Assembly: GCF_016127575.1 (NCBI RefSeq)
Contig: NZ_CP066018.1
Span: 1,470,001 to 1,502,000 of the forward strand
Direction of reading: 5' to 3'
Length of the DNA stretch: 32,000 nt
Origin: Cupriavidus necator
Lineage (GTDB): Bacteria > Pseudomonadota > Gammaproteobacteria > Burkholderiales > Burkholderiaceae
Both the position numbers and the translations under genes were made by a program. Under the pieces are notes generated by a model. The model saw only the letters and a list, made by a program, of their open reading frames with translations. It was not told the origin of the DNA and did not search any database. This document shows, in pieces, positions 4,260 through 25,149 of the stretch (within the stretch, counting starts at the first letter, position 1; every line of letters begins with the position of its first letter).

Positions 4260-4277
4260 CTCCTGCGCAGCCCGCCC

Positions 4278-4720: not shown

Positions 4721-7363
4721 ATGCCAGAACGCTCGACCACCCGATATGGCAAGGCGCTGCAGCGCCTGCACCAGTTCTTCTCCCCGTTGAACCTGGCGGC
4801 GGCGGCGTGGCTGATTGCAACATGGGCGTTCGCGGCGTTTCAGCTCGTGAGCGAGCGGGACCGCCTGCTGCACGACGCCGCGGAGCGTACCCAGGCGCAG
4901 GCCCAGGCGTTCGGCGCGTACTCGAAATCCAGCATCCTGCGGCTGTCCGAGTTCCTCCTCGACCTGCGGGCCAGCTGGCTGGTCGGCCAGCCGGGATTCA
5001 TCGACATGGTGCGCGAGCGGCAGAACCTGGTGGTGGACCTGTCGTTCCAGGTGTCGGTGATCGACAAGCATGGCCTGCTCATCTACTCGTCCATCGCCCC
5101 GCCCACGCCCGGCCAGAAGGTCGACCTGAGCGAGCGCGAGCATTTCCGGGTCCATCAGAACGCGGGCGGGCGCGACATGCTGTTCATCAGCGACCCGGTG
5201 AAGGGCAAGGTCTCGCGCAAATGGTCGATCCAGTTCACGCGCCCCATCCTGCGCGCGGGCAGCTTCGACGGGGTCATCGTGGTCTCGGTCAGTCCGGAGC
5301 AGTTCGCCAGCTTTGCGCAGTCGTTCACAAACCGCGATGGCGAAGTGGCGTCGGTCGTCAAGACTTCCGGCCAGGTCATTGCGCGCGTGCCGGCCATGGA
5401 GGGCACGCTGGCCAGGGCGGTCAGCAACAGACCGTACCTCGCCAGCGGGTCGCCCCAGTCTGGTAGTTATCGGGCGGTGTCGGGCTCCGAAGGCGTGGAG
5501 CGGGTCTTCGGCTATTACCGTTTGCCGGAATTCGGGCTCAATTTCGTGGTGGGGGAGTCCGTCGGCCTGGTGCTGGCACCCTACGAGGTCTATCGCCGCG
5601 TTGCCCTGGCCGGTGCCATGGCTTCCACGCTGCTGCTTGGCCTGTTGTACTACAGCCTGCGCCGCTCCATGGGGGAGCGACGGCGCCATATGGAGGAGAT
5701 GAAGCTGGCTTCGCTGGTCTATTCATCCAGCAGCGAGGCCATGGTGGTGACGTCGCTCGATGGCACCATCATCGACGTCAATCCGGCCTTTGCCGCCGCC
5801 ACTGGCTATACAGCCAAGGAGGTCAAGGGCCGCCCGGGCCATATCGTCAGCGGGGCAGGCAATGCGGCAGGGCTGGTCGAGCGCCTGCGGACCACCGTGG
5901 CATCCAAGGGCAGATGGAGCGGCGAATTCTCGATCCGCCGCAAGGACGGCAGCGAGTTTCCCGCCTACCTGACCGTGGATACCTACCTGGCCCACGCGTA
6001 TGGCGAGCGCCGCCGCGTTGCGCTGATCCATGACATGACCGAGAAACGCCAGGCGGAGGAAGTCATCCGGCACCAGGCGAATTTCGATGCGCTCACGGAT
6101 CTGCCCAACCGCCGCCTGTTCTTCGACCGGCTGAGGCAGGAGATCGAGCGTTCGCGCGGCACACAGGATGTGCTGGCGCTGCTGTTCATCGACCTGGATC
6201 GCTTCAAGGAGGTGAACGATACCCTCGGCCACGACCAGGGCGACCTGTTGCTGCTGGAGGCGGCGCGGCGCATTGCGGCATCGGTGCGCGCGTCGGATAC
6301 CGTGGCGCGGCTGGCCGGCGACGAGTTCACCGTGATCCTGCCCGCGGTGGGCGATGCCGGCGTTGCCGGGGGCATTGCCCAGGCCATCCTGGAGCGGATT
6401 GCCGCGCCTTACCGCCTGGCCGGCGAGCTGGTGGTGGTGTCGGCCAGCATCGGCGTGGCGACCTGGCCCAAGGACGCCGACAACGCCGAGGACCTGCTGG
6501 TGTGCGCCGACCAGGCGATGTTTGCCGCCAAGGAGGAGGGCCGCAATCGCTGGAAGGTCTTCACCCAGGCCCTGCTGCAGGCGGAGAGGGAGCGCCTGCG
6601 CATCACGCAGGACCTGCGCACGGCGCTGGCGTCCGGGCAGTTCGCGCTGCACTACCAGCCCATTGTCGATCTGCGCACGGGCAAGGTCTGCAAGGCCGAG
6701 GCCCTGATCCGCTGGGACCATCCGGTGCGCGGGCCGATCCACCCGGCCGATTTCATTGCCGTTGCGGAGGAATCCGGCCTCATCATCGACATCGGCCGCT
6801 GGGTGCTGACCGAAGCGCTGGACCAGCTTGCGCGCTGGCAGGTGCTGCTGGGCAAGGGCTTCCAGATCTCAGTCAACAAATCCCCCGTGGAGTTCAGCGC
6901 GCCTGCGATCGGGCCCGAGTCCTGGTCCAGCATGATCGAGCGCAGGAACGTGCCGGTGGGCAGCCTTGTCATCGAGATCACCGAAGGCTCGCTGATGGAG
7001 CAGAACGCCGATGTCATGGACCAGCTATCCCGCTTCCAGGCGGCCGGCATCGAGATCGCGCTCGACGACTTCGGCACCGGCTACTCGTCCTTGTCGTACC
7101 TGCGGCGCCTGGACATCGACTACATTAAGATCGACCAGTCCTTCATCCGCTCGCTGACGCGGGGCCCGGACGACGTCGCCTTGTGTCACGCCATCATCAG
7201 CATGGCGCATGCACTGCGCATTCGGGTGATTGCGGAGGGTGTGGAGACGGAGTCGCAGCGGGACATACTGGTGGCTGCTGGTTGCGATTACGGGCAAGGG
7301 CACTTCTTTTGTCCGCCGGTGGAGGCTAGTGCGTTTGAAGCGTTTGTGAGCGCTGTGACTTGA
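4721..7363 (+). CDS. Membrane sensor, diguanylate cyclase/phosphodiesterase (periplasmic Cache-like domain, TM, PAS, GGDEF, EAL)
   Basis: The ATG at 4721 is one codon after the listed TTG. A TM segment (LNLAAAAWLIATWAFAAF) is followed by a Cache-like region (DLSEREHFRVHQ...ISDPVKGKVSRKWSIQFTRPI), a second TM and a PAS domain (VVTSLDGTIIDVNPAF...). The GGDEF domain shows RxxD context, LFIDLDRFKEVND and RLAGDEF. The EAL domain shows EALIRW, EITE, DDFGTGYSS, KIDQSF, EGVETE and QGHFF. Confidence 0.9.
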   Translation: MPERSTTRYGKALQRLHQFFSPLNLAAAAWLIATWAFAAFQLVSERDRLLHDAAERTQAQAQAFGAYSKSSILRLSEFLLDLRASWLVGQPGFIDMVRERQNLVVDLSFQVSVIDKHGLLIYSSIAPPTPGQKVDLSEREHFRVHQNAGGRDMLFISDPVKGKVSRKWSIQFTRPILRAGSFDGVIVVSVSPEQFASFAQSFTNRDGEVASVVKTSGQVIARVPAMEGTLARAVSNRPYLASGSPQSGSYRAVSGSEGVERVFGYYRLPEFGLNFVVGESVGLVLAPYEVYRRVALAGAMASTLLLGLLYYSLRRSMGERRRHMEEMKLASLVYSSSSEAMVVTSLDGTIIDVNPAFAAATGYTAKEVKGRPGHIVSGAGNAAGLVERLRTTVASKGRWSGEFSIRRKDGSEFPAYLTVDTYLAHAYGERRRVALIHDMTEKRQAEEVIRHQANFDALTDLPNRRLFFDRLRQEIERSRGTQDVLALLFIDLDRFKEVNDTLGHDQGDLLLLEAARRIAASVRASDTVARLAGDEFTVILPAVGDAGVAGGIAQAILERIAAPYRLAGELVVVSASIGVATWPKDADNAEDLLVCADQAMFAAKEEGRNRWKVFTQALLQAERERLRITQDLRTALASGQFALHYQPIVDLRTGKVCKAEALIRWDHPVRGPIHPADFIAVAEESGLIIDIGRWVLTEALDQLARWQVLLGKGFQISVNKSPVEFSAPAIGPESWSSMIERRNVPVGSLVIEITEGSLMEQNADVMDQLSRFQAAGIEIALDDFGTGYSSLSYLRRLDIDYIKIDQSFIRSLTRGPDDVALCHAIISMAHALRIRVIAEGVETESQRDILVAAGCDYGQGHFFCPPVEASAFEAFVSAVT

Positions 7364-7448
7364 GGCGAGGGGCGTTTTTCGGTGCCCCGGACTCCCTTAC
7401 CAATTGCAACAATGGAGTCTCGCCAATTTGGCGGACTCCGTTCCGCCG

Positions 7449-8441: not shown

Positions 8442-9002
8442 ATGATGCCTGACACTCGCTACGCACTACGAAACGGCGACAAAACCAGTACAGACGGCGT
8501 GCTCAACGGCACTGCTCGCAACTCTCTTGATCATGGCGTGGCCTTGGCCGTAGAAGGTGACTATGCGACCTGCCCGGCATGCAAAGCTGGCGGTCCTGTG
8601 ATGAACGACTGTTATCCGGCTTTCGATATAGGCGGCAAGCAAGTGCTGGTGAGTGGCGCCCGAGTGTATTGTAAATGCCAGACAAAGCCAGTTGTCCTGC
8701 CATCCCAGATCAGCTTCACAATTGAAGTAAATAAATCTGGCACGGCCTACCTTTCCGCTGGCTCGAACGGTGATTCATCTTTGGAGCCCCTCTCGAACTC
8801 TCAGGATATTGTTGAGCAGTACTTTGAAATAACTGACGAGGATGGGCAGCCTGTGGAGGGTTATCGCTATGACTTGTTTGCAAATGGCGAGCAGTTAGCC
8901 AGAAACAGAAGAATGATCAGCGGGCGAACCATCTCTTTCGAAGGTAGTCATGACATTCACATTGTTATGTGGCTCGACAAGACAGGGCAGGAGCGAGCAT
9001 GA
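8442..9002 (+). CDS. PAAR-domain protein (T6SS spike tip) with a ~90-aa C-terminal extension
   Basis: A strong SD (GAGGAGG) lies ~8 nt upstream of the ATG. The sequence NGDKTSTDGVLNGTA...VALAVEGDYATCPACKAGGPV...GGKQVLVSGARVYCKCQTKPVVLPSQ matches the CPxC...CxC PAAR class as I remember it from Burkholderia PAAR proteins. Confidence 0.8.
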   Translation: MMPDTRYALRNGDKTSTDGVLNGTARNSLDHGVALAVEGDYATCPACKAGGPVMNDCYPAFDIGGKQVLVSGARVYCKCQTKPVVLPSQISFTIEVNKSGTAYLSAGSNGDSSLEPLSNSQDIVEQYFEITDEDGQPVEGYRYDLFANGEQLARNRRMISGRTISFEGSHDIHIVMWLDKTGQERA

Positions 9003-9613
9003 CAGAGAAGCTTGATTCCGAAACGCGCTTGCTTGCTGCGATGGCCTATGGCGAGTCGTCGACGGCCGATGTATTTGAGGAAATGGCCGCCTTGGCCAAC
9101 GTGATGGTTCGGCAAAGTAGAGCAAGAGGATATAGCACGATCGCCGCATTCACCGCTAAGGAGGCATCTTTCTCCTACGTTGTCGCCGATGGAAACAAGC
9201 GATACGCGAAGCTTATGACGGCCAAGGACGAGGAGATAGAGAACTCTCCGTCAATGTCTGACGCAGTAAAGGCGGCAAAAAATGCATTGAATGGAGGGGA
9301 GGATTATTCGAATGGCGCATACTTCTGGGATGGCGCGGACATCAGGTCCAACTACAAGAACCATTTCAAGGTGGCAAAGGGAATAAGGTTCACGGATCCA
9401 TCCCACAACATCTACGGGATCAAGGAATCCACAAAGTTAGTAAAGAAGATAAAGACCACAAAGATCAAAGTGAATGGAAAAATCGAGACAAGGAAGGAAG
9501 AGCTTTGGCGATACGATCACATTTATCAGTCGACGGCCGCTTATGGCGGCACCATCTTTTGGAAACAAAACCCGGATTACATAAGATATACGCACGCGAA
9601 GGAGTACCTATGA
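8999..9613 (+). CDS. Putative T6SS effector, cell-wall hydrolase-like (SleB/Hydrolase_2-like N-terminal motif)
   Basis: The ATG at 8999 overlaps the PAAR stop (ATGA), which implies translational coupling. LLAAMAYGESS...MAALANVMVRQSRARGY resembles the AEArGE...AVA.VvlNR pattern of SleB-type hydrolases. It is followed by a secreted-protein gene, which is the effector-immunity layout. Confidence 0.6.
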   Translation: MTEKLDSETRLLAAMAYGESSTADVFEEMAALANVMVRQSRARGYSTIAAFTAKEASFSYVVADGNKRYAKLMTAKDEEIENSPSMSDAVKAAKNALNGGEDYSNGAYFWDGADIRSNYKNHFKVAKGIRFTDPSHNIYGIKESTKLVKKIKTTKIKVNGKIETRKEELWRYDHIYQSTAAYGGTIFWKQNPDYIRYTHAKEYL

Positions 9614-10131: not shown

Positions 10132-10669
10132 CCGGCCTACATATGCGTTGCGGCATCGAGGACACATCTGGACCCAGCGCCGCGACCGCAAGATGGGACC
10201 GTGTCGCAGATCGAGCAACCGGTGCGCATGTCGCGTGAGTTCGGCCGCGACGTAGCCAACGACGAAGGAGCGCGCAGCGCGCGAAATCTAAAAAATCGGC
10301 ACGGTCCACGGCGCCGATGAAACGCTGGCCAAGAACGGGTTCGCACCGAACCGCAAGCCGGGGCAGGTCGGATCCGAGGCACGGCAGACGCGCATAAGCG
10401 GCGTCGATCTGGACGAGAGGACCTATATACTTTCGCTATGGACGTTCTAATCCAAATGGCGTGCCCCTTAGTTACCGACGCATAAGCGTGTAGGATCTCG
10501 GTATTTGCGGAGGCCGCCATTTCCGCGCTCCACGCGGCGGCTGAGTTTCTAATGCTGGGATAAGGAAATGCGAAGATTAGTCTGGCATGAATTCCCCATG
10601 CCTCCGTTTATCAAGGTTCGGAGATCGTCGCGTGCCGCTGTTATCGAGGTGCACCAACTATGAGTAGCT

Positions 10670-12235
10670 ATGAGTGTGACTCCTCCACGCGACACCCTGG
10701 CTATGCATAGCCAAAGTACCTCCTCCAACGAATTTGCTCCGCTGGAAAGCGATATTCTGGAGCAGATGAGCGAACAGGGTGGGGCAACAGTACCCGATGC
10801 GATAGAAATGGGCGCTCTCGCCCCCTCATCGGGGCTGATCGACCTATCCCGCCAGCAGCGCAACCTGTTGCTGCTGCGCCCCCTCTTTCAGCTTGAGCTT
10901 AACAAGCAGCGCATTGGTGAAGATGGCACCCTCTTTGAGGGAATCGACACCCACTACCTCCTGCTAAGCTCGCTCGACCGCATGATGGAGGGAACGACAG
11001 TCTCAACGGGTTGTACCAGCGACGAAGTCCTCACTCACATAGCAGACACCGTCATGGCAATGAAGCCTTCGCTATCAGCGGTTCAATCGGGCAAGGTCGC
11101 GGACACCGTGCTCGCAGCGCTGGACAATAAGGCCAACGGGTACAAAGAATTCTCATTCGAGTACTTCCATGCAACGCATAAATCCACGCGCAGCATTCGC
11201 TTTCGGTTAGTCGCCTACGAGCCTGACATTGAAGATGTCTACCGCTATAAGCCAACCGCAGAAGGATACCTCGTCTACCTTGGCATGCTTGACCTCTCGC
11301 CGGAGGACGCGCAGGAACTAATGGAGAAGATGCTGGAGTTACTTGTGCAGCGCGGCCGATTCGACGCTGCGTTGGAAATTGCCCGACGCGCCCGCACGCT
11401 GTCAATCGAGTATCGCCAGCTCATCCGCGACAGGTTGTATCAAGCTTACCGCGCGCCAGGCACAGTCAACTGGAAGCGCGATATCAGCGCTGGTTTGGAT
11501 CGGGCGCGAGAACATGTGCGACAGCGCCAGGCAGAGGACCAGCGGATGGAAGAGTCTGTTCTGCTGGCCCTGCGACAGGCCGAGGAACCCAAGGCGCGCG
11601 CGAACCTGGCGCTCCTGCTTAAGACGCTGCAAGGTGCCAGCATGCTGCGTTCGCAACTTGTGGGAGATATTAGCCGCGCCAATGACCGGTTCCTGGAGGC
11701 ACAGCGTACGTTGTTTCGGGCCCGGCGCGCCACCGGACTGCCTGACCTGGAGACACGGCTCTTACCGCAGTTCATTGAATTGCCTGTCAATATTCTGGCC
11801 GAGCAGGCTGAAAACGCACTCAGTGCGATGTATTCGCCGGCGCTGCCACGTGTGTATGACCTTAATTCGCTGTTCTCGCTGCTGCTCGAGCAGCGCGTCG
11901 AAGACGGCGACCCAGGGGAAGACGACGGTGAGATCACGCCATTCGTACCACCCCCTCTTCAGTTCGATGAAGCCGTCATCCGACAGGTGACGGACTGGTT
12001 GACCGAGAGATTCTCGCTGGGGCAGTCCTGGCGGTTAGATGAACTGCTGGATCAAGCCGAGGACATGGGGTTCGATCGCACTATTCGACGCTGTCTAGTA
12101 TTGATGCTGTTTCGGGCGTACTCCCACTCGGAGACAGAATTCAAGAACATGCGGGCGGACGCACTGGACGAGTTCATTGCCGATGTGGCACGCGGAACCA
12201 ATCTGCGCTTTACTCCCAAAGAGAGGCACTCGTGA
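10670..12235 (+). CDS. JetA-like (kleisin-like) subunit of a Wadjet/Mks-like system; start uncertain
   Basis: This 521-aa ORF is the first gene of a four-gene coupled operon. It has a helical N-terminal half, an acidic linker (EDGDPGEDDGEITPF) and a compact C-terminal domain, which fits a kleisin. The size and position match JetA, but I cannot see DUF3375 motifs by eye. Alternative in-frame ATGs lie at 10703 and 10766. Confidence 0.55.
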   Translation: MSVTPPRDTLAMHSQSTSSNEFAPLESDILEQMSEQGGATVPDAIEMGALAPSSGLIDLSRQQRNLLLLRPLFQLELNKQRIGEDGTLFEGIDTHYLLLSSLDRMMEGTTVSTGCTSDEVLTHIADTVMAMKPSLSAVQSGKVADTVLAALDNKANGYKEFSFEYFHATHKSTRSIRFRLVAYEPDIEDVYRYKPTAEGYLVYLGMLDLSPEDAQELMEKMLELLVQRGRFDAALEIARRARTLSIEYRQLIRDRLYQAYRAPGTVNWKRDISAGLDRAREHVRQRQAEDQRMEESVLLALRQAEEPKARANLALLLKTLQGASMLRSQLVGDISRANDRFLEAQRTLFRARRATGLPDLETRLLPQFIELPVNILAEQAENALSAMYSPALPRVYDLNSLFSLLLEQRVEDGDPGEDDGEITPFVPPPLQFDEAVIRQVTDWLTERFSLGQSWRLDELLDQAEDMGFDRTIRRCLVLMLFRAYSHSETEFKNMRADALDEFIADVARGTNLRFTPKERHS

Positions 12236-12972
12236 GCGATATCCAAATCGGCGTGCGCCAAGCCGCTCGCCTCGTCTATAAGGCGCTGCACACAACACTG
12301 TCGCCGGTCAACGATCAGGAATACCGCCAGTTGCTTGCGCAGTATCGGGCCAACCCTGCCTTTGCCGCGCAGGTACAAGACGTGGCTACGGGCATGGAGC
12401 TCATCATCCTGGACGTCAGCGAGCGCGGACTCATAATCGTACCCGCCTCGCGCGAAAGCCGCTTTGCCATCCGAATGACCGACATTCGCACCGGACTGGA
12501 TGCCGCACAGAAGGCAAGCCTGCTGCTGGCGCACGTGGCCATCGCTGCGGTCTTTTTTCCGACCACCGATGGTCTGGACGACGATAACTACACTCCCCCG
12601 CCGGCGCTTGTGTCAACCTGCCGAGACACGTTGCACGCCTTGGCTCGGCGCCTCAGGGAGTCGTCCAACCCGCCGGCAGATATCCCGCCTGAGCTTGCAC
12701 CAGGTTGGGAGTCGGTATCAGCCATGCCTCTGGTGCTGCCGGCGGGCCAGCGTGCCTCGGTCAACTCCCTGGTGGGTATCGTCAAGCTCGCGCTGGGCCA
12801 TATGCAAACACATGGCCTGGTACGTCTGGACAGAGAAGCCGATGACGATGCATCGGTGACCTATACCGCTACGCATCGCCTGCGTGTGCAGTTGCGCGAG
12901 ATCGCGTTGCGCCGCCTCTTCGACATCGCCCAGGAAGCCGCACGCATGCCGGCGACGACCACGGAGACATAG
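12232..12972 (+). CDS. JetB-like (KITE / DUF4194-like) subunit
   Basis: The GTG start overlaps the jetA-like stop (GTGA), and an AGAGAGG SD lies 5-6 nt upstream. At 246 aa it has the size and position of JetB. The sequence pattern ...TGMELIILDVSERGLIIVPA... and ...HGLVRLDREADDDASVTYTATHRL... fits tandem winged-helix domains. Confidence 0.55.
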   Translation: MSDIQIGVRQAARLVYKALHTTLSPVNDQEYRQLLAQYRANPAFAAQVQDVATGMELIILDVSERGLIIVPASRESRFAIRMTDIRTGLDAAQKASLLLAHVAIAAVFFPTTDGLDDDNYTPPPALVSTCRDTLHALARRLRESSNPPADIPPELAPGWESVSAMPLVLPAGQRASVNSLVGIVKLALGHMQTHGLVRLDREADDDASVTYTATHRLRVQLREIALRRLFDIAQEAARMPATTTET

Positions 12973-12973
12973 T

Positions 12974-15900
12974 ATGCAGAAAATATCGCGTATCTATCTG
13001 GGAAACTGCGGCTACCTGATGGCCTGGTATGACGGGTTGTTGTTCGACCTGACGGATCCGGAAACGCACCAACCGACCGACACCATCATCAACCTCGAGA
13101 ACGGAGGCGGGAAGACGTCGCTGCTCAGCCTGATCTTCTCGTGCTTTGACACGGGCCAGGACCGCTTTCTCAAGCATCTGCAAAGCAAAAACAATCATTT
13201 CTCGCAGTACTTTTCGCAAGACGGCCTGCCCGGCTTCATCCTGGTGGAGTGGGAGATGCCCTCGCGCACGGCTGGCGGTGAGCCGTACCGACTGGTCGTG
13301 GGTCAGGTGGTGTCCATCAAGGCGGGCAACGACGTGCCGGAGAGCGACCGGATGTTCTTCAGCTTTGAAGCAACAAGCGGCTTGATGCTTGAAATGATTC
13401 CCGCGCCGAAGCTCGGCACCGCCCCGGTGACATCACTGGCGGAATTCTCGCGCTGGGTACACGAAGAACAGAGGAAGCACCCCGACGTCTATGTCACCCG
13501 CAAACAAGCCGATTGGCAGCGCCACCTGCGTGAAGAGCGTCTCATCGACCTGGAAATGCTGCAGATGCAGGTCAATTTCTCCGTGCAAGAGGGCGGTTTC
13601 GATACCGGCTTCCTGAACTTTTCCAGCGAGGCGGCCTTTCTGCAGAAGTTCTTTCATCTGACGCTGGACGCACAAAGGGCCGCCGCCGTGCGCGACGCCG
13701 TCGCAGCAGCCTGCGACAAGTTACGTCGCAAGCCTCACTATCAGGCCAAGCTTACGGAGCTAACGAAGTTCCGTGCCGTGCTTCGATCCTTTGAGGAGAC
13801 AGCGCACGCCTATCGACTATCCCTGGCCGACCAGATGAGTGTGCTGGTCAACGGCGCGCGATTGGCGTTGGCACTACACGAACGGGCGAACACGCGGCGG
13901 AGCAAGCAACAGGCCGAGCTAACTTTCGAACGCGACCAGCGGGCCGTGGCGGCGACCGCCGCGTCCGACGTGCTTGGTTACAGCAGCCAAGCCGCCAGCA
14001 TGGCCAGCCTGATTCACGTGCGCGCCGTGCGCGCCGCCCTGGAGCGCACCAAGCAAGCCGCGTTGAGCCTGACAGACCTGCAAAACGATATCAAGTATGT
14101 GAGGGCTGCACGGGTACTGGCGGAAGTGGACGCCGCCGATAAGCGCTTGCAGACACTTGAGGCTCAGGCCGACCTCGCCAAGGAAGGCTTGCAGCCGTTT
14201 CGCGACCAGCTGGAAACGGAAGGCGCGCTGCTTCGCACCGCTCTGTTCAAGCACGAACAGGCCCTGCGCGAGACGCAGCGCAAAATTGAGAAGGAGTCCA
14301 TAGACCGCAACGACACAGTGACCGGGCACCGGACGGCACTTGCCGAAGACGAAAAGCGTCGGCGCACCGCAGTCAACGAACAAGCCAAGCTTACCGAGCT
14401 GGAAAAGGCCTGGGAGCGCGAGCACACTCGCATGGTCACCTCGGGGCTCCTGTCCGACGCTGGCGAAGTGACTCAAGTAGCTGTGGCGCGCTGGGGCGAG
14501 ACCGAGCAGCAGATGCGGCGAGAGGAAGCAGCCCACAAGATTGCGCAAAGCCAGCATGAACAGCAACAGGGCCACTGGAGCAGCGAGGAAGTGCGCCTGG
14601 GCAGCGAAGCAGGTCGATTCGAAGGCGAGATTCAGTCCACCGCAGACTTCATCGGCGAGGGTACCGCCGAGCGCGAGCGGCTGTCACAACTACCGGCGAT
14701 CCTGCTAGCTGTCGAATCCGACACAGCGTCTCCAGACTCCCCTGCATTGCCGTCGGTGCTCGAACGCGTAGCGGCGGCGTCCGCCTCGGAAATCTCCCTA
14801 AGCGATGTGCGCCTGGCCGAATTGCACGCGACGATGCAAGCCATCCACGAAACAGGTGTGGCTGGTAGCAGTCCAGATGTTGCGCGTGTCGTAGCGCGAC
14901 TACGTGAGGCCGGCGTGCGCTCGGCCCGCCCCTTCAACGAATACCTTGCTGACGCATTACCGGACGCGGAGCGCGCTCGTGGCTTGGTGCTGAGCGACCC
15001 GGCTCGTTTCCTGGGGGTTTCCGTTGCACAAAGTGAAATGGAAAAAGCCCGTGGCATCGAATGGCATGGCCAGAAGCTGACCCGTCCGGTGGTGGTTTCC
15101 CCCCTTGCTCTCGAATCAGCAGCTGCCGCCCCCACTCGCCTGGTGGTACCTGCAGCAAGCGACGCTGCATACAACCGGGCCGCGGCCGAGACATTGGCCG
15201 GCACCCTGTCGGAAACCATCCGCCTCGAAGAAAATCGTCGCGCCGGATATTATCAGCGCCAGACTGACGCACTGGCCGCGATGCAGGCACTCCAAACCTA
15301 TGTGCTTCGCTTTGGTGAGGGCAAACTGGCAGCGGCGAACCTCCGGCGCAATGAGCTTCAGAGTCAGCTGCGCTCCACTTTGGAGCGCAAGGAAAAGGCT
15401 CGCGAGAAGGCGGCCGCGGAAGCGGCAGAAGCAAAGATAAGCAACGAGGCCGCAGTCAAATGCGACCGCCTGGCCCTCGAAGCATGCTCCCATCTTCAGG
15501 TACTTCAACGCTTCATGGCAGAGTATGAGGCCAACCGCGAGGAGCGGCTCCTCCGTCTCGATGAGCTCGAAGTCATACTGGAAGATCTCGAGGTCCGACG
15601 CCTGGCGACCGAGGATGAAATCCAGCGTCTTGAAGACATTACGCGTGAACAGAGCAAAGTCGCCATCAAGGCCGAGAACAGCGCCGACAACCTGGCCGGC
15701 GAGCGTTCCAGAATTGAGTTCTACGACAAGACACTGGCCGCCGATGAGCATTTGAAGGCCAATCCCCGAGACCTGGAGATGCTGCGTGGGACGTACTCCG
15801 ATGCGCTGACGGTTTACAAGGCGAAGGCACAGGATCAGCTGGGTGTGCTTGAAGTGCAGATGCAGGAAGCACGCAGGCGCCGCGACGAGAAAAAGCAGGA

Positions 15901-17392
15901 ATACACCCGCGACTACCCCGGCGTCACGCGTACTCATGTAGCGCCGTTCGAGGGACAGGACCACTGTGCCATGCTGGTTGGTCTGGAAGCCAAACGTACG
16001 CTCGTCAACAAGGAACACCTGGACGCCGTTTCAGCCAAGGGCGCGGCCGAGCACGCATCAGAAGACTGGCACAAGAATAATCGCGATGTACCGCCGGCCA
16101 CTCCCGACATCGAGGCGCTGGATGCTGCTGCCCTCGATGCCCGAAAGGACGAGGCAGTGCGCATGAGTGAAGAGGCCGGCGCGCGCCAAAAGAACGCATC
16201 GGACGTGGCGGACCGGGCGCGCGGCACCGCCATGCGCCTCGGAGAAGCCGCTGGCCAGGACGACCGCCTGGCGGAATTGCTCAAGAGCACGATGAAGCTG
16301 GAGGCCACGCCGAACCCCGAACTGCTTGCACTGGAGATCGCCAGCCTGACGGGACAGCCACCAGTGCTGCTCGAACAGCTTGGCGAGTTAGTGCTCGAGG
16401 AGGACGCGAGCGACCAAGTCACACGCGCCGTCAAGAATCACGGCGCTAAATCGGGCCTATGCGACCGGGCTCGCGATAATGCGCGTACGGTTTTCGATGC
16501 GGTCAAGCTGGCCGCCGGCGACCCCGAGCTCCAGAAAGTCGAGCCGGAGCTTGCGATTGCCATGCTGGCTAACGAGTTCACAGCGGCTTGCAGCGATGCC
16601 GCCCGGCTGTTGGAAGGTCTCGAGGATCGCATTCATACCACCCAGGACAACCTGGACAAGATGCAGGCTGACTTCGATGCCTGCGTCGAGGAAATGCTGG
16701 CGCTGTCTCGCATTGCCCTGGGGTTGCTGAACTCGGCCATTGACAAGCGTGTGCCCGCCACCGCGCCGTATGTCGCAGGCAAGGCAGTCCTGAAGATGCG
16801 CGCGAACTTCGCGGCCATCAACGTCGAGAGCCGACGACAGGCGCTCACGCATTACCTGGACAGTCTGATTCAGGCTAACGTGCCTCCGGGCAAGGGCTCG
16901 GACTTAGTGGCTGAGGCCGTGCTTCGAATGTACGGCGGCCGCCCGCTGGGCCTACAGGTGCTACGCATGGTTATCGACGAAAGCCAACAGTACGTACCGG
17001 TGGAGAAGATTTCCAACTCTGGTGGCGAAGGTGTGGTGATGGCGTTGTTTCTCTACGTAGTCATCACCCAGCTACGCGCGGAGACCCAAGCCAAGCTGCA
17101 CAAGCTTGCCGGCGGCCCGCTTATCCTGGACAACCCGTTCGCCAAGGCCACCTCGCCGACCATGTGGAAGGCGCAGCGTCTGCTCGCGCAATCCATGGGG
17201 GTGCAGTTGGTGTTTGCCACTGCCATCCAGGACTACAATGCCCTGGCGGAATTCTCCGCCTTCGTCCGGCTACGACGCGCTGGGCAGAACAGCAAGACGG
17301 GGCGCTGGCATTTGGAGTCTGTCCGCTACCGCCTCAATGAGGAGATGGCCAATCCAGAGCTGGCGGCGCCTAGTACGATTGAGGCAGCCTGA
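12974..17392 (+). CDS. JetC-like SMC/MukB-like ABC ATPase (1472 aa)
   Basis: The ATG at 12974 follows a GGAG SD 7 nt upstream; the listed start at 12884 lies inside jetB. Walker A is NLENGGGKTSLL (13100-13120). About 1200 aa of heptad-like Ala/Glu/Arg/Leu-rich coiled coil follow, with a central non-coiled hinge-like segment (...VARLREAGVRSARPFNEYL...LGVSVAQSEMEKARGI...). The signature-like motif is SNSGGEG (17012-17032), and a Walker-B-like LILDNPF lies at 17120-17140. Confidence 0.8.
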   Translation: MQKISRIYLGNCGYLMAWYDGLLFDLTDPETHQPTDTIINLENGGGKTSLLSLIFSCFDTGQDRFLKHLQSKNNHFSQYFSQDGLPGFILVEWEMPSRTAGGEPYRLVVGQVVSIKAGNDVPESDRMFFSFEATSGLMLEMIPAPKLGTAPVTSLAEFSRWVHEEQRKHPDVYVTRKQADWQRHLREERLIDLEMLQMQVNFSVQEGGFDTGFLNFSSEAAFLQKFFHLTLDAQRAAAVRDAVAAACDKLRRKPHYQAKLTELTKFRAVLRSFEETAHAYRLSLADQMSVLVNGARLALALHERANTRRSKQQAELTFERDQRAVAATAASDVLGYSSQAASMASLIHVRAVRAALERTKQAALSLTDLQNDIKYVRAARVLAEVDAADKRLQTLEAQADLAKEGLQPFRDQLETEGALLRTALFKHEQALRETQRKIEKESIDRNDTVTGHRTALAEDEKRRRTAVNEQAKLTELEKAWEREHTRMVTSGLLSDAGEVTQVAVARWGETEQQMRREEAAHKIAQSQHEQQQGHWSSEEVRLGSEAGRFEGEIQSTADFIGEGTAERERLSQLPAILLAVESDTASPDSPALPSVLERVAAASASEISLSDVRLAELHATMQAIHETGVAGSSPDVARVVARLREAGVRSARPFNEYLADALPDAERARGLVLSDPARFLGVSVAQSEMEKARGIEWHGQKLTRPVVVSPLALESAAAAPTRLVVPAASDAAYNRAAAETLAGTLSETIRLEENRRAGYYQRQTDALAAMQALQTYVLRFGEGKLAAANLRRNELQSQLRSTLERKEKAREKAAAEAAEAKISNEAAVKCDRLALEACSHLQVLQRFMAEYEANREERLLRLDELEVILEDLEVRRLATEDEIQRLEDITREQSKVAIKAENSADNLAGERSRIEFYDKTLAADEHLKANPRDLEMLRGTYSDALTVYKAKAQDQLGVLEVQMQEARRRRDEKKQEYTRDYPGVTRTHVAPFEGQDHCAMLVGLEAKRTLVNKEHLDAVSAKGAAEHASEDWHKNNRDVPPATPDIEALDAAALDARKDEAVRMSEEAGARQKNASDVADRARGTAMRLGEAAGQDDRLAELLKSTMKLEATPNPELLALEIASLTGQPPVLLEQLGELVLEEDASDQVTRAVKNHGAKSGLCDRARDNARTVFDAVKLAAGDPELQKVEPELAIAMLANEFTAACSDAARLLEGLEDRIHTTQDNLDKMQADFDACVEEMLALSRIALGLLNSAIDKRVPATAPYVAGKAVLKMRANFAAINVESRRQALTHYLDSLIQANVPPGKGSDLVAEAVLRMYGGRPLGLQVLRMVIDESQQYVPVEKISNSGGEGVVMALFLYVVITQLRAETQAKLHKLAGGPLILDNPFAKATSPTMWKAQRLLAQSMGVQLVFATAIQDYNALAEFSAFVRLRRAGQNSKTGRWHLESVRYRLNEEMANPELAAPSTIEAA

Positions 17393-18387
17393 TGCCGGCG
17401 CAATTTTTCGCCAGACTGAAGGCATCTCCACGCAAGAGGGTGGAGCTTGTGCAGCTCAAGCAGTTGTACTTCGAGCTGTATCCGGAGATTCAGAACCACC
17501 CCGAACGTAGCCGCATGTTGCTGCAGGCCCTTCAGGCGCTGGCCGCAACCGGCGCCATAATGCTGCCAGCTCGCGCCAGTTGGGAGAAAGTCGGCCAGCC
17601 GGCGTTGCCGATGTGGATCAAACTCGTTCGCACGCACAATGAGGCGCCGAAGGAGGATTTCTCCAAAATTCCCTGGGTGCCAGAGCTGGGCTTCTGGCCT
17701 GAGCTAACGAGCGCCCAACTCGCCGCGGCAAAGTGCATTAACGAGTTCCTGCTTCAACGCCGCGGAAACCTCCAGCGAATCCCCATCAAGGAACGTTCGC
17801 TTGAGATCTTTGGAGACGAGAAGCGGCTCGACGCTATGAGGCAGGGCAACACACTGTTCTCAGGCCGATTGTCGCTTGATACGCTAGGTGCGTTCACCGT
17901 GCCTCTACCGCTTCCGTACCGACCGGCACCCGTATCGGGCAAACCGCTGCTCGTCGTCGAAAACCACAACAGCTACTGGAGCTTCGGTGAGTGGAATCAG
18001 CGAGCCCTACGATATTCAGCGGTCGTCTACGGTGCCGGGGAGGCATTTCGCAGCACGGGAGCAGCCCTAAGACAGGTTCTACATGAAGTGAAGGGCACCG
18101 ATGTCCTGTATCTAGGAGACCTGGATCCTAAAGGCATCGGCATTCCGCTTGACTTTAACCGCTCGTCGGCGAGTGATGAGCCCAAGGTTGCGCCAGCAAT
18201 GGAGTGGTATGAGTGGCTGTTGTCGCATGGGTTTCGGCGAAAGAAGGCTGTTTGCACAAACGCTCACCCGCAATCCGCCATTGATTGGCTCGGAGAAACC
18301 TTAGGCGAGGAACTCGCGGAGCTATGGCGGGGAGAGTGCTGGATTCCACAGGAGGCTTTGGGTTTCGAGCAGCTAAGCGCTCTGTGA
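17392..18387 (+). CDS. JetD-like Toprim nuclease subunit (DUF2220-like), short form (331 aa)
   Basis: The ATG shares 1 nt with the jetC stop (TGATG). KERSLEIFGDEKRLDAM, the Toprim Glu in LLVVENHNSYWSF (E at 17959-17961), the DxD in VLYLGDLDPKGIGIP (18115-18129) and a C-terminal IPQEAL all match the JetD/MksG C-terminal domain as I recall it. Confidence 0.8.
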   Translation: MPAQFFARLKASPRKRVELVQLKQLYFELYPEIQNHPERSRMLLQALQALAATGAIMLPARASWEKVGQPALPMWIKLVRTHNEAPKEDFSKIPWVPELGFWPELTSAQLAAAKCINEFLLQRRGNLQRIPIKERSLEIFGDEKRLDAMRQGNTLFSGRLSLDTLGAFTVPLPLPYRPAPVSGKPLLVVENHNSYWSFGEWNQRALRYSAVVYGAGEAFRSTGAALRQVLHEVKGTDVLYLGDLDPKGIGIPLDFNRSSASDEPKVAPAMEWYEWLLSHGFRRKKAVCTNAHPQSAIDWLGETLGEELAELWRGECWIPQEALGFEQLSAL

Positions 18388-18601: not shown

Positions 18602-19996
18602 ACGCCGCTCCACCTTCAATATAACGCCTGGCTCCGTGAGTACTTCGCCGCGATCAGTGGATGGGCGTTGAGGGAGTATTGAGGCTTCTGCGTCCGTTAT
18701 GTCGTGCCGATCCAGTGGCTGGGCGGCCAGCCGGGGACCACCGCCACCGGCTATACAGCCGAGGAGATCCGTGGCCGCCCGGGCTATAGCGTCAGCGGCG
18801 CAAGCAATGCGGCGGGGCTGGTCGACCGCCTGCGGGCGTGGCCGCCATGGGCAGCTGAAGCGCCAGGCGGAGGAAGTCATCCGGCACCAGGCGAATTTCG
18901 ATGCGCTCACGGAGCTGCCCAACCATCGGGTACCGTGGCGCGGCTGGCCGGCGACGAGTTCACCGTGATCCTGCCCGCGGTGGGCGATGCCGGCGTTGCC
19001 GGGGGCATTGCCGAGGCGATCCTGGAGCGGATTGCCGCGCCCTACCGCCTGGCCGGCGAGCTGGTGGTGGTGTCGGCCAGCATCGGCGTGGCGACCTGGC
19101 CTAAGGACGCCGACAACGCCGAGGACCTGCTGGTGTGCGCCGACCAGGCGATGTTTGCCGCCAAGGAGGAGGGCCGCAATCGCTGGAAGGTCTTCACCCA
19201 GGCGCTGCTGCAGGCGGAGAGGGAGCGCCTGCGCATCACGCAGGACCTGCGCACGGCGCTGGCGTCCGGGCAGTTCGCGCTGCACTACCAGCCTATTGTC
19301 AATCTGCGCACGGGCAAGGTCTGCAAGGCCGAGGCCCTGATCCGCTGGGACCATCCGGTGCGCGGGCCGATCCACCCGGCCGATTTCATTGCCGTTGCGG
19401 AGGAATCCGGCCTCATCATCGACATCGGCCGCTGGGTACTGACCGAAGCGCTGGACCAGCTTGCGCGCTGGCAGGTGCTGCTGGGCAAGGGCTTCCAGAT
19501 CTCGGTCAACAAATCCCCCGTGGAGTTCTGCGCGCCTGCGAGCGGGCCCGAGTCCTGGTCCAGCATGATCGAGCGCAGGAACGTGCCGGTGGGCAGCCTC
19601 GTCATCGAGATCACCGAAGGCTCGCTGATGGAGCAGAACGCCGATGTCATGGACCAGCTATCCCGCTTCCAGGCGGCCGGCATCGAGATCGCGCTCGACG
19701 ACTTCGGCACCGGCTACTCGTCCTTGTCGTACCTGCGGCGTCTGGACATTGACTACATTAAGATCGACCAGTCCTTCATCCGCTCGCTGACGCGGGGCCC
19801 GGACGACGTCGCCTTGTGCCACGCCATCATCAGCATGGCGCATGCACTGCGCATCCGCGTGATTGCCGAGGGCATCGAGACCGAGTCGCAGCGCGACATC
19901 CTGCTGGCTGCCGGCTGCGACTACGGGCAAGGCCACTTCTTCTGTCCGCCGGTTGAGGCCAGCGCGTTCGAGGCCTACGTGAGCGCCGTGACTTGA
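18602..19996 (+). repeat. Direct repeat, copy 2 (patchwork, internally deleted) of 4179..7363
   Basis: See copy 1. Three intervals of copy 1 are absent here: ~4260-5796, ~5891-6045 and ~6111-6296. The last 1067 nt are colinear with 6297-7363. Confidence 0.85.
18704..19996 (+). pseudogene. Truncated paralog of the GGDEF-EAL gene: no sensor, TM or most of PAS; half a GGDEF domain; an apparently intact EAL domain
   Basis: A 430-aa open frame starts at GTG. Its N-terminal ~75 aa mix in-frame and out-of-frame pieces of the PAS region; the native frame KRQAEEVIRHQANFDALTELPN appears in the other ORF, 18699..18968. From VARLAGDEF onward I count 7 aa differences from copy 1 over ~355 residues. All EAL motifs are retained. 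It may still be expressed as an EAL-only protein. Confidence 0.65.
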
Positions 19997-20055: not shown

Positions 20056-20098
20056 CAGCGCTGCTCATCCGTTGGGCGGGTAAGCAGGCTCTCCCTCG

Positions 20099-20431
20099 TC
20101 AGACCAGTGCCTGCAGGCGGTCGGCGGTGTCGACCAGCTGTTGCTTGAGAGGCAAAAGCAGGGCGTGGAGGCCGATGCCTTGGGGGATGGTGTCGCTCTG
20201 TAGCTCCAGCAAGGTCAGGAAGGACTGAAGGCCGGCGCTGACGCGCAGGATGTCGTCAGTGGCTTCGAGGATGTGGTCCTCGAGGGTGATGGCTGTGCTG
20301 GGCGGGGGTGGAGCGGCTTTGGCTTGGCGGCGGGCCTGGGCGCGGTCGATTTTGGCCAGGTTTTCGGCTAGTTGGGCTTGCTTTTGGGCTAGGGTGGGCT
20401 CTTGGGGAGCCGGGGTGGTGGACTGCATCAT
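20099..20431 (-). CDS. Small hypothetical protein (110 aa), possibly DUF1484-like
   Basis: The internal ATG at 20431 follows a perfect GGAGG SD (ccGGAGGtcATGATG). The sequence MMQSTTPAPQEPTLAQKQAQLAENLAKID...LRVSAGLQSFLTLLELQSD... is helical. The DUF1484 resemblance rests only on my memory of size, taxon and pattern. Confidence 0.5.
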   Translation of the reverse strand: MMQSTTPAPQEPTLAQKQAQLAENLAKIDRAQARRQAKAAPPPPSTAITLEDHILEATDDILRVSAGLQSFLTLLELQSDTIPQGIGLHALLLPLKQQLVDTADRLQALV

Positions 20432-22140: not shown

Positions 22141-23022
22141 ATGACATCGACCATTCAACTTACGTTAGACGGTTCTTTTTTGCGTGACAACAATCACGTT
22201 TCGCTCCGCGTCCTTGGGCGATCGATGATCTCTATTCAAGCCGCCGCTGACCGCGCTTATCTTGACATAAAATATGGCAATATCTGGAAGCATGCGCGAT
22301 TGCCAATTGCCTTCTACGATGACGCAGATTTTATAGTTGGGGACCCGGAAAAGGGAAGCTATATAATAAAGTTCCTCTCTGAGCAAGGAGAAGCCATTGT
22401 TAAGCGACTACGACAGGCAATTGCAGACCCCTATCGTTCGGCCATAGAGGGTGGGGAGCAAGAGATATTCTCGATTAAACGGCAGATCGAGGCGCGAAAA
22501 AATCAAGTAGATAACGTAATTTTGGTTCCGCAGACATTTGACGAGTTCTTGCAAGCCCCCGATGAATTGGCCACCCGAGCTTATGGTGACAAATCGATTA
22601 ATAAGAATATTGATCATATGCTTAGCCCGGTAAGGAAGGATCCGGATGCAATTCTAAAGATTTCCCTAAAGCCCAATTACCGCGAACGCACGGAAACATT
22701 CACTTTTACCCAGAAGGAGGCAATCGCTTTCAAGAAGGTGGTCAGTCAGCGGCAACTTGGAAATCCTGTGATCTACCATGGCAGACTAAGAGCACTGGAT
22801 CGGGGGCACAATCAAAAGGCAAACTTCAAAGGCAAATTCATTAATGCGGCGAATGATCGCGACCTGGCGTTATTCATCCAAAGCGAGCAGGATTACTCGG
22901 ATCTAGTCCCCTATATGGATCGGGAGAATCTCACAATTGTGGCATGTCCTATTGTGGAGTACGACTCGTTCGATCCCGTCGCGGGAGATATTCAATTCGT
23001 GAAGATTCTTACTGATGGCTGA
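22141..23022 (+). CDS. Hypothetical soluble protein (293 aa), no recognisable family
   Basis: This is a long ORF in a lower-GC block, with normal amino-acid composition and no TM segments. I see no P-loop, HNH or PD-(D/E)xK motif. Its stop overlaps the start of the next gene (ATGGCTGA). Confidence 0.7.
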   Translation: MTSTIQLTLDGSFLRDNNHVSLRVLGRSMISIQAAADRAYLDIKYGNIWKHARLPIAFYDDADFIVGDPEKGSYIIKFLSEQGEAIVKRLRQAIADPYRSAIEGGEQEIFSIKRQIEARKNQVDNVILVPQTFDEFLQAPDELATRAYGDKSINKNIDHMLSPVRKDPDAILKISLKPNYRERTETFTFTQKEAIAFKKVVSQRQLGNPVIYHGRLRALDRGHNQKANFKGKFINAANDRDLALFIQSEQDYSDLVPYMDRENLTIVACPIVEYDSFDPVAGDIQFVKILTDG

Positions 23023-23710
23023 GAAATCGATCGACAATCTTCGAGAGCAGTGCCTTGAGCTGCTACTAAATATTGTGCCAATCAGTCAGATTGGCTTCAT
23101 TTTTGTTACCGCCGTCGTTTTTCAGAGACTAGCCGAGGGCTCTGGTTCATCGGCATTTGGCGCCTTATCAGGGTTGGGCCTGAAGAATTTGTTTGCCATC
23201 AGCGATGGGTTGTTTTGGAGTGTCGGCATCGTCCTAGTGGGTGCGTGTTTCTTCTTAGCGCTAATCAACACCTACATATTAAAACTCGCACTACGCAAAT
23301 CATTTGAATCGAGCCGGATATCGGAGCAACTGTTACGCTGGATCTCTGTCGCAGCGAAGTCTATGGAGGGTTTGGATAAAGATGATCGCGGACCAATTCG
23401 AGATTCAATCAGCACCGAATTAACCAGAAGATTAAAAAAATATCATTCAAAGCGAATGCTGAGCGAGTCCCTCTTTTCGATTTCAGCAGTTATAGTTTAC
23501 GCATCCATTTATCTGATATTTATTAACCACTCAAATCTTTCCAAAATAGAATTTTCTTACCTAGAGTTGATCGTTGGCTCCGTTAGCACGCTTTTGTGTT
23601 TTTTTTGCCACCGGAACTCCATTCGATATGCACTATCGAGGGTGGTGCCTTTGCAAGTGTGCTTGACGGCCATGACCGGTGAGCTCGCTTTTTCCATCGA
23701 TGCTGACTAA
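23015..23710 (+). CDS. Hypothetical integral membrane protein (231 aa, ~4 TM helices with a charged central loop)
   Basis: The hydrophobic segments are IVPISQIGFIFVTAVVFQRLA, LFWSVGIVLVGACFFLALINTYIL, LFSISAVIVYASIYLIFI and LELIVGSVSTLLCFFC. The loop between TM2 and TM3 is charged (RKSFESSRISEQLLRW...DKDDRGPIRDSISTELTRRLKKYHSKR). It overlaps the upstream gene by 8 nt. Confidence 0.7.
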   Translation: MAEKSIDNLREQCLELLLNIVPISQIGFIFVTAVVFQRLAEGSGSSAFGALSGLGLKNLFAISDGLFWSVGIVLVGACFFLALINTYILKLALRKSFESSRISEQLLRWISVAAKSMEGLDKDDRGPIRDSISTELTRRLKKYHSKRMLSESLFSISAVIVYASIYLIFINHSNLSKIEFSYLELIVGSVSTLLCFFCHRNSIRYALSRVVPLQVCLTAMTGELAFSIDAD

Positions 23711-23810: not shown

Positions 23811-24030
23811 CTGCGCCAGACGCCGCCTTCGCTCATCAGACAAGCGGCTGCAGGCGGTCGCCCGTTCTGGTCGAGCCGTTGATTTGATCGGAAACAGCTG
23901 GTCGTAGAGACCAATGTTTTCGGGGACGACGCCTATTGACCCAGCTCAAACCAGCTTTCGACTCCCCACCAAAGCAGTATTTACCAAAAATACCAAATCA
24001 GCACATCTTTGCTGTTTTTGGAGGGGACAA

Positions 24031-25149
24031 ATGCCTTTGGACACCAATGAACGGTTCAATCACATCCATTACGTTCCAATTCTCAAATGGAGGCAAGGCG
24101 AGTACCAGGCACTATGGCGCTTGAGCGATGCCGCCAAGCAATGGATAACACCGCTACTAGAAATTCCTACTGAGCCATGGGATTTCGAAACAGAAACGCC
24201 CGCAAAATCTTTAGATGAGCATCTCGAGCGCTTTGGAAACCGCCTCAAAAGTAAATGGGACACTCGTCGATGCTTTATCGACTCATGCTACATCGATGGT
24301 GTCGCACAAATGTCAACAGGACAGCATCACCTCGAGTTCCTGTTCGAACAAGCTCGGAATGAAGGAGCTTCACCGATACCGGTTACTGGGCTTGGCCGCC
24401 ATCCAGACTATGACGCAGCGGTACACAACATCGTTGCTCAAGATCAGCGGGGCGCGTGCGTTCGTCTTTCCGCTGAGGACTTTAGTGCCTCTATTTTGAA
24501 TGACCTTCAAAACTTGTTTGCTCGGCTAAATGTGGGGCCGCCCGACTCACACCTCGTTATAGACATGGCGGAGGACATCAGCGGCTCACCGGTCGCGCAA
24601 GGTCTCGCATGGAAGGCACTGCTTCAACAGACGCCCTGGCTAAACGACTGGAAATCTGTAACAGTTGCCGCAACGGCGTTTCCCAGCGCTCTACCAGCGG
24701 CACAGTTCCGTCCGCATGGACTCACACCAAGAACAGAGTGGAACGCATATAACGCCCTGTTGACAAACTTGGGTGGCCTGCGCATTCCAACTTTTGGGGA
24801 CTACTCGGTTTCACACCCACAGACCGAGCTACTCGATCCGCGTGTGCTCGATCCAAACGCGAAGATCAAGTACACCGTTGATGGCGAATGGCTCGTTCAC
24901 ACTGGTGCCCAAGTGAAGAAGCATGGTAGGGGTCAATTTCAAGGACTATGCCAAGAACTGATTGCCAACCCGTCAGCAGCTTTCCCAGGACCGACTTACT
25001 CATGGGGTGATGCATATATCCATGGGTGCGCAAGTGGCACCGAAACGACGGGCGGCACATCGACATGGCCTTCGGTCGGCAACAACCGACATATCACCAA
25101 GGTCATCAGGGATGTCGCCACGTTGTTCGGGTCTTCAACGATTCCCTGA
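24031..25149 (+). CDS. Beta-protein-family-like protein (PF14350-like; related in motif to 'sce7725 family')
   Basis: The internal ATG at 24031 follows GGAGGGG 5-7 nt upstream, so the listed start at 23914 is unlikely. The N-terminus HYVPILKWRQGEYQALWRLSDAAKQWITPLLEI matches the YvPiLK.k.gE..AL....i.PLiEi motif I recall for the Beta_protein family. A later ...TFGDYS... motif also fits. Confidence 0.6.
   Translation: MPLDTNERFNHIHYVPILKWRQGEYQALWRLSDAAKQWITPLLEIPTEPWDFETETPAKSLDEHLERFGNRLKSKWDTRRCFIDSCYIDGVAQMSTGQHHLEFLFEQARNEGASPIPVTGLGRHPDYDAAVHNIVAQDQRGACVRLSAEDFSASILNDLQNLFARLNVGPPDSHLVIDMAEDISGSPVAQGLAWKALLQQTPWLNDWKSVTVAATAFPSALPAAQFRPHGLTPRTEWNAYNALLTNLGGLRIPTFGDYSVSHPQTELLDPRVLDPNAKIKYTVDGEWLVHTGAQVKKHGRGQFQGLCQELIANPSAAFPGPTYSWGDAYIHGCASGTETTGGTSTWPSVGNNRHITKVIRDVATLFGSSTIP

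Follow-up and report, generated by a model that had tools for sequence, protein, structure and literature searches.

The locus described here raises the question of which kind of SMC system it encodes. The window, as we call the whole 32,000-nt stretch of Cupriavidus necator DNA that was analysed (contig NZ_CP066018.1, positions 1,470,001 to 1,502,000), carries four adjacent genes on the forward strand, the third coding for an SMC-like ATPase and the fourth for a Toprim protein. An earlier note, made from the sequence, had taken them for a Wadjet (JetABCD) operon, possibly of a divergent or unclassified lineage. The core of that call was correct, as shown by matches to the PADLOC models of type III. 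We concluded that the operon is very probably the type III Wadjet system (JetA3-JetB3-JetC3-JetD3) of C. necator H16, or of a strain identical to H16 over these genes, with a mechanism that would follow types I and II by analogy.

The type assignment was made with the PADLOC profiles. JetA3 matched PDLC00569 at 826 bits (residues 48-520 on profile positions 2-476 of 477), JetC3 matched PDLC00578 at 2200.7 bits (residues 1-1458 on positions 1-1444 of 1451), and JetD3 matched PDLC00594 at 386 bits (residues 6-330 on positions 9-336 of 345). Four of the five sequence features expected of type III were found, and JetB gave a weak match. The Pfam scan of the four proteins detected JetD_C (PF09983) in JetD (25.7 bits, cut-off 22) and, below threshold, DUF6063 in JetB (18.5 bits vs. 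a cut-off of 27). The NCBIfam scan of all four proteins returned zero matches. Type III can be classified with PADLOC but not with the Pfam or NCBIfam libraries.

Neither of the other two Wadjet types describes the operon. Regarding type I, DUF3375, DUF4194 and DUF3322 were not found in the four proteins by the Pfam scan at E <= 0.01, the PADLOC JetD1 models matched only the Toprim core of JetD and did so weakly (18 bits), and JetC is 1472 amino acids (aa) long. Regarding type II, none of the PADLOC type II JetA, JetB, JetC or JetD models was among the matches to the four proteins, and JetB has the size of an ordinary KITE protein. The blank NCBIfam scan points the same way, if TIGR02677-02680 are the type II Wadjet models, as we take them to be.

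Four departures from described Wadjet types had been listed in the earlier note: a MukB-sized ATPase, a short JetD-like protein, no DUF3375 in the first protein, and a Walker B region without the catalytic Glu. The observations themselves held. The 1472 aa of JetC compare with type III JetC profiles of 1451-1486 positions and the 331 aa of JetD with type III JetD profiles of 345-350 positions (391-409 for JetD1), and JetA3, to which Pfam gives no match, is not a DUF3375 protein. Their oddity did not hold, since all four are properties of the whole type III family; they seemed unusual because the operon had been compared with type I only. A Wadjet lineage outside types I-III would be in keeping with the absence of above-cut-off Pfam and of NCBIfam matches for JetA, JetB and JetC, with the lack of a PDB relative by sequence, and with the weak match of JetB to JetB3. 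Nevertheless, the type III matches of JetA, JetC and JetD run end to end along one existing type, both PADLOC and DefenseFinder call the operon type III, and the four unusual features are family-wide, which makes such a lineage extremely improbable. The earlier note had also said that strong full-length matches of all four proteins to one type would make this an ordinary Wadjet. Three of the four match strongly and JetB weakly, and the operon is essentially an ordinary Wadjet.

The four proteins are already in public databases. JetA is identical to CAJ91172.1 in 521/521 residues (tag E6A55_00105 in the newer H16 annotation). JetB, which one NCBI record names "DUF4194 domain-containing", is 100% identical to CAJ91171.1, and JetC is 100% identical to CAJ91170.1, a "Chromosome segregation ATPase". 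JetD is 100% identical to a C. necator protein named "Wadjet protein JetD C-terminal domain-containing protein" by NCBI; CAJ91169.1 (H16_A0017) is a shorter JetD call of 312 aa in the same cluster. A 2024 paper lists the H16 operon under "Wadjet type III", following PADLOC and DefenseFinder, with the tags E6A55_RS00090 (JetD3), RS00095 (JetC3), RS00100 (JetB3) and RS00105 (JetA3) (PMC12645576). Both its annotation and its use in experiments thus predate this analysis.

The four genes of 521, 246, 1472 and 331 aa and their tight coupling, as previously described, were present (Table 1). The jetA stop and jetB start share GTGA (12232-12235), the jetB-jetC junction (12970-12976) consists of TAG, one base and ATG with a GGAG Shine-Dalgarno sequence 8 nt upstream, and the jetC stop and jetD ATG share TGATG (17390-17394). 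The longest open reading frame (ORF) in the jetC frame begins at 12884; the start at 12974 is supported by M1 and the motif MQKI(S/T)RI, which are invariant in 24/24 aligned homologues. The jetA start is ambiguous, with public annotations of 521, 510 or 475 aa and candidate starts, besides the first ATG, at 10703, 10766 and 10808. JetA homologues are mostly 488-495 aa long, M33 (ATG 10766) is kept in at least 90% of the aligned homologues, and the PADLOC JetA3 match starts at residue 48. Homologue length and M33 conservation favor ATG 10766 as the probable start, which has a GGAG only 3 nt upstream.

We examined AlphaFold models of the first two proteins. The JetA model (predicted local distance difference test, pLDDT, of 66) begins with a winged helix, continues through a long bundle of helices and a disordered linker, and closes with a second winged helix at the C terminus, a predicted domain order that is MukF-like. 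Its top four Foldseek matches in the PDB came from MukBEF entries (three to chain C and one to chain D, best E 1.1e-3). The JetB model (pLDDT 85, 55 homologues) is made of two helix-helix-helix-hairpin units, i.e., tandem winged helices. Its best Foldseek match was a chain of Nse1-Nse3-Nse4 (Smc5/6) at E 0.016 and probability 0.97, and the list also held other Smc5/6 chains, MukE, ScpB and generic winged-helix proteins. In these Foldseek searches, a kind of comparison that the earlier note had proposed, the expected families ranked first and the E-values were weak; we regard the model-based matches as supportive, not decisive. DUF6063 was matched weakly (E <= 0.01) by 15 of the 55 JetB homologues, and in the Clostridium perfringens pJFP838A locus the place of JetB is taken by a DUF6063 protein. 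Operon position, protein size, the predicted tandem winged-helix fold and the weak DUF6063 matches tentatively suggest the JetB3 role.

The JetD Toprim signature seen earlier was verified, with the catalytic motifs at the positions given in Table 1 and Pfam JetD_C above its cut-off. Conservation was scored in 48 JetD3 sequences drawn from related loci, and Q320-E321 is invariant in all of them, as are the residues listed in the table.

A scan with the JetB profile, taking one genome per species, yielded 52 loci. Those in Betaproteobacteria came from Pandoraea, Cupriavidus, Paraburkholderia, Burkholderia, Massilia, Collimonas, Polaromonas, Rhodoferax, Thauera and others, and related loci occur in Xanthomonas. 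At 33-39% JetB identity the family extends to Alphaproteobacteria, Vicinamibacterales (Acidobacteriota), Latescibacterota and Gemmatimonadota. The A-B-C-D order and the gene sizes are the same in all 48 complete loci (48/48, out of the 52). The architecture is that of a stable, widespread family and not a local oddity. The two metagenomic loci L053 (9724-17764) and L055 (9724-17034), from Rhodobacterales and Vicinamibacterales, have a stretched JetC match or a JetD shifted by ∼2-2.7 kb when compared with the other 46 loci, suggesting an insertion within or after jetC. In C. perfringens the locus (L001, 1-7492) lies on the 404-kb plasmid pJFP838A in the order JetD-JetA-JetB(DUF6063)-JetC; here an anti-plasmid system is itself encoded on a large plasmid.

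JetC3 carries the motifs of an ABC ATPase (Table 1). Among 95 diverse JetC3 sequences, all 95 have the Walker A residues N43, G46 and K47. The signature Ser (S1349) is kept in 147 of 151 cluster representatives, a set consisting of the window protein and 150 representatives from an exhaustive search with the JetC C-terminal head. The Walker B Asp-Asn is invariant in the same 151/151 sequences, which reach down to ∼28% identity and cover at least two PADLOC JetC3 subfamilies, and in all 120 of the close, full-length homologues (1436-1475 aa). Ten distant representatives that were looked up are mostly metagenomic. The C. perfringens pJFP838A protein (Walker A TNTLGKS, Walker B VLIMDNPFAK) and a Streptomyces plasmid JetC3 (LIMDNPFGK) also have Asp-Asn. 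The lack of the Walker B Glu reported earlier is therefore real and, as far as type III has been sampled, a trait of the type and not a peculiarity of this protein. Decay of this copy as the source of Asp-Asn was rejected, the motif being family-wide. Another candidate, MVIDE (residues 1332-1336) as an alternative Walker B, was also rejected; it precedes the signature motif in the sequence and lacks conservation.

The JetC3 profile was aligned with E. coli MukB by hhalign. The alignment was in register, pairing SGGE with STGE and LILDNP with LFLDEA (E 0.052), so that MukB S1366, D1406 and E1407 correspond to JetC3 S1349, D1386 and N1387. For the N-terminal head only the Walker A region could be aligned with MukB, and no Q-loop equivalent was mappable by homology. 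Within this half of the head, two Glu residues are invariant, E92 and E206. E206 is kept in 95/95 and G207 in 92/95 of the diverse sequences, and both are invariant in 24/24 homologues including those of Clostridium and Streptomyces. E206-G207-G208 follows the Walker A Lys by 159 residues and MukB Y206-G207-G208 by 166, a correspondence drawn from spacing only.

Several points weigh against the type III reading or against a working system of this kind. JetB3 matched PDLC00571 weakly (25 bits, E 2.7e-6, profile positions 21-212 of 239), and hhalign found no significant similarity between the JetB profile and one DUF6063 protein from Clostridium. The structural matches of JetA and JetB all had E-values above 1e-3 and low template modelling (TM) scores. 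A sequence search of the PDB with the four single proteins and with profiles of JetB and of the JetC N-terminal head found no solved structure for any of the four. JetC3 is without the Walker B Glu, and the equivalent E-to-Q change in type I JetC abolishes ATP hydrolysis and DNA cleavage. Deletion of the H16 operon left electroporation efficiency and the stability of an RSF1010-GFP plasmid unchanged under the conditions tested (PMC12645576); by contrast, deletion of native type I or II systems raises plasmid uptake by orders of magnitude. Finally, the publications consulted report no reconstituted or solved type III complex.

The missing Glu bears on how a type III system would work. The ATPase step of type III JetC is unlikely to be identical to that of type I, because every sampled type III JetC has Asn in place of the Walker B Glu; hydrolysis would have to be slow or to rely on another residue. 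A natural precedent exists in Lamassu LmuB, in which the Walker B Glu is replaced by Gln and slow or no hydrolysis has been proposed (PMC10586767). Possibly the catalytic carboxylate has been relocated to the N-terminal half of the head, E206 being a candidate (MukB has Tyr at the matching position). In the literature that was searched for Wadjet and Walker B we came across no discussion of the Glu missing from type III.

A type III system with a non-canonical SMC ATPase cycle, either hydrolysing slowly like LmuB or using a relocated carboxylate, would sense plasmids by something other than the continuous loop extrusion of type I. The conservation of Asp-Asn across phyla, in register with Asp-Glu of MukB, the inactivity of type I JetC(EQ), the LmuB precedent and the two invariant Glu residues speak for such a cycle, as does the fact that the sole native type III knockout found in the literature searched gave no plasmid phenotype. 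The MukB alignment that sets the register is statistically weak, being made against a single-sequence template, the placement of E206 in the active site comes from spacing, and the negative knockout may reflect lack of expression or the choice of plasmid. In addition, the type III system of Bacillus thuringiensis reportedly reduced transformation in the original Wadjet study, which makes the family presumably an active one. On balance we treat a non-canonical cycle as a tentative proposal, possible but not the likelier outcome. If true, with a relocated base or a slow, binding-driven cycle, plasmid sensing in type III would differ from the loop extrusion and cleavage of types I and II, and the different ATPase mechanism could relate to the absent plasmid phenotype of the C. 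necator deletion.

The lack of a deletion phenotype could also be explained by an intact-looking copy that is functionally dead or silent. A simple scan upstream of the operon detected no sigma-70-like promoter, but such a scan looks for one promoter type and does not show that a promoter is absent. The four ORFs are intact, at positions with 90% or higher conservation the window JetC always has the residue typical of the family, JetA and JetB match their homologues at all invariant columns, and JetD likewise keeps its family-conserved residues. A dead or silent copy is therefore unlikely in our judgment.

For the type III Wadjet reading, published work on the other types offers a mechanism. 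In types I and II, cleavage of circular DNA depends on ATP and JetD, and the same principle is expected for type III by the authors of that work (10.1101/2025.03.10.642339). Starting from what was observed (protein identities, family membership, operon order, and conservation of the ATP-binding and Toprim residues), JetC3 dimers, the JetA3 kleisin and a JetB3 KITE dimer would make up an SMC motor able to load onto DNA and scan it. Recognition of a small circular DNA would then license the JetD3 Toprim nuclease (E190, D243 and D245) to cut, and cutting of circular DNA would remove plasmids. Both the complex architecture and the extrusion-cleavage mechanism are transferred here from types I and II by analogy. 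Papers from the group that reconstituted types I and II call type III largely uncharacterised and ascribe to it long coiled coils and a hinge that lacks a channel.

Table 1. Genes, motifs and repeats in the 32,000-nt window (positions are those of the window; residue numbers are those of the protein named)
Feature	Position	Strand	Basis or remark
VasX_N toxin (140.9 bits, runs off window) and DUF4123 adaptor-like ORF	1-2506	-	
Repeat, left copy: 3' end of DUF218 gene and intact Cache-PAS-GGDEF-EAL gene (4718-7363)	4179-7365	+	Pfam
PAAR protein	8442-9002	+	Pfam
jetA3 (kleisin, MukF-like)	10670-12235	+	521 aa, first ATG
jetB3 (KITE-like subunit, predicted tandem winged-helix domains)	12232-12972	+	246 aa, GTG start
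jetC3 (SMC/MukB-like ABC ATPase)	12974-17392	+	1472 aa from ATG
JetC3 Walker A NGGGKT, residues 43-48	13100-13117	+	placed on MukB GNGAGKS by hhalign
JetC3 E206-G207, N-terminal head half	13589-13594	+	conservation
JetC3 ABC signature NSGGEG, residues 1348-1353	17015-17032	+	aligned with MukB STGE (S1366) by hhalign
JetC3 Walker B LILDNP, residues 1383-1388	17120-17137	+	Asp1386-Asn1387; Asp-Glu in MukB and type I JetC
jetD3 (Toprim nuclease subunit)	17392-18387	+	331 aa
JetD3 Toprim Glu motif VVEN (E190)	17953-17964	+	E190 and N191 invariant, 48/48
JetD3 Toprim DxD motif GDLDP (D243, D245)	18115-18129	+	invariant, 48/48
Repeat, right, decayed copy, directly after jetD	18602-19996	+	81 nt of DUF218 3' end (91% identity) and GGDEF-EAL gene
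MrcB_N (PF12102, 132.7 bits) and HNH type IV-like enzyme, 371 aa	20922-22037	+	PADLOC mREase_IV, E 5e-10
Beta_protein (PF14350, 356 bits)/PD-Lambda-2_C-like gene	23914-25149		PADLOC, E 2e-49
McrC and McrB	25961-29700	-	
Type I restriction subunit, C-terminal part	30425-31969	-	

The operon lies in a defence island or conflict region (Table 1). The VasX_N and PAAR genes, type VI secretion cargo, flank the region. An ORF of 214 aa overlaps the 3' side of the PAAR gene (the pair spans 8442-9613, forward strand); it has no family match and is possibly a toxin or immunity partner. Upstream of jetA, 238 nt (10134-10371) show 83% identity to a 3-keto-5-aminohexanoate cleavage protein gene on a plasmid of Azoarcus sp. 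KH32C. They lie inside a minus-strand ORF of 127 aa without Pfam match and look like a gene remnant.

Two direct repeats bracket an 11.2-kb segment with the PAAR and Wadjet genes. In the right copy the GGDEF-EAL gene has internal deletions and its final 1.07 kb is 98% identical to the left copy; overall identities are 87-98%, and the two GGDEF-EAL proteins share 348/360 residues. Because the direct repeats flank this segment, acquisition by recombination is suggested. A megablast search of 25 kb against plasmids found the GGDEF-EAL gene in single copy in the chromid of Cupriavidus sp. EM10. The flanks there are unrelated, and the empty site of the island was not defined by megablast.

Downstream, the MrcB_N-HNH gene lies in a low-GC (guanine plus cytosine) stretch between McrBC and Wadjet. 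It does not appear in the published H16 defence table, in which paper the residual restriction of mis-methylated plasmid DNA by H16 after deletion of type I and McrBC was ascribed to a "yet undiscovered" system (PMC12645576). The MrcB_N-HNH gene is a plausible candidate for this residual restriction of methylated plasmid DNA. A 37-nt direct repeat (20092-20128 and 23829-23865, 81% identity) brackets a 3.7-kb segment of low GC content (46-52%) that holds the MrcB_N-HNH gene and two ORFs (22141-23710) for which no matches were obtained; the repeat could delimit a separate insertion or could have arisen by chance. The Beta_protein gene, which follows these two ORFs, converges on a minus-strand ORF matching PADLOC "cll" (E 6e-27). 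Together they span 23914-25726 and may constitute a further defence module outside the published table.

The surroundings also bear on whether the operon encodes a chromosome-organising condensin of the MukBEF or MksBEF kind, with JetD as an accessory. The best structural matches of JetA are to MukBEF, JetC has a length and motif spacing close to those of MukB, the genes bear some of the earliest locus tags of chromosome 1 (H16_A0017 onward), and the deletion had no plasmid phenotype. A condensin would not be expected, however, to keep as its fourth gene a Toprim nuclease subunit with strictly conserved catalytic residues, the loss of which is thought to distinguish Muk and Mks from Wadjet, or to have Asp-Asn in the Walker B motif of its ATPase. 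The operon sits among restriction and defence genes, the decayed duplication beside it suggests acquisition, and the family is spread patchily across distant phyla. Moreover, a deletion strain could be made, and it served in assays of transformation and plasmid stability. We consider a condensin highly unlikely, and a type III Wadjet remains the preferred reading.

By itself the locus adds little: this type III Wadjet of a model biotechnology strain has been annotated by prediction tools, published and already deleted. What it offers is a convenient, genetically tractable entry to the least studied Wadjet type.

Wadjet type III was reportedly defined by Doron et al. in 2018 and has models in both PADLOC and DefenseFinder; its representative in the literature is that of Bacillus thuringiensis. 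The C. necator operon has the same four genes as other type III systems (JetC ∼1450, JetD ∼340, JetB ∼240 and JetA ∼480-520 aa), and full-length HMM (hidden Markov model) matches, the Asp-Asn Walker B and a long coiled coil are common to both. Nothing sets it apart from the subfamily represented by PDLC00569, PDLC00578 and PDLC00594. The Clostridium type III system differs in gene order (D-A-B-C vs. A-B-C-D here), and the DUF6063 sequences of Firmicutes are distant from the JetB found here.

With the type I systems (E. coli GF4-3, P. aeruginosa JetABCD, and C. glutamicum MksBEFG) the operon shares the logic of kleisin, KITE, SMC and Toprim subunits. JetC is ∼370 aa longer than the ∼1100 aa quoted for type I in the earlier note, whereas JetD is shorter (331 aa vs. 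profiles of 391-409 positions), and Walker B reads Asp-Asn instead of Asp-Glu. Type II, exemplified by Neobacillus vireti nvJET-II (PDB 9QE0), likewise combines an SMC plasmid sensor with a JetD nuclease; its coiled coil exceeds that of type I in length, and its hinge has no channel, in which it resembles type III. Type II has a single tandem-KITE subunit, whereas JetB3 has 246 aa, an ordinary KITE size, and no sequence match to the PDB chains was obtained for the operon.

JetC3 (1472 aa) and MukB (1486 aa) are of similar length, the distance from signature to Walker B is 37 residues in JetC3 and 40 in MukB, and both have GG at residues 207-208. In sequence they are no more than marginally similar (hhalign E 0.052 and 0.0079), MukB E1407 is replaced by Asn in JetC3, and MukBEF has no nuclease subunit. 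In Lamassu LmuB the Walker B Glu is naturally replaced as well, by Gln instead of Asn, in a protein of ∼650 aa with short coiled coils and different partners and effectors, and no homology to JetC3 was detected.

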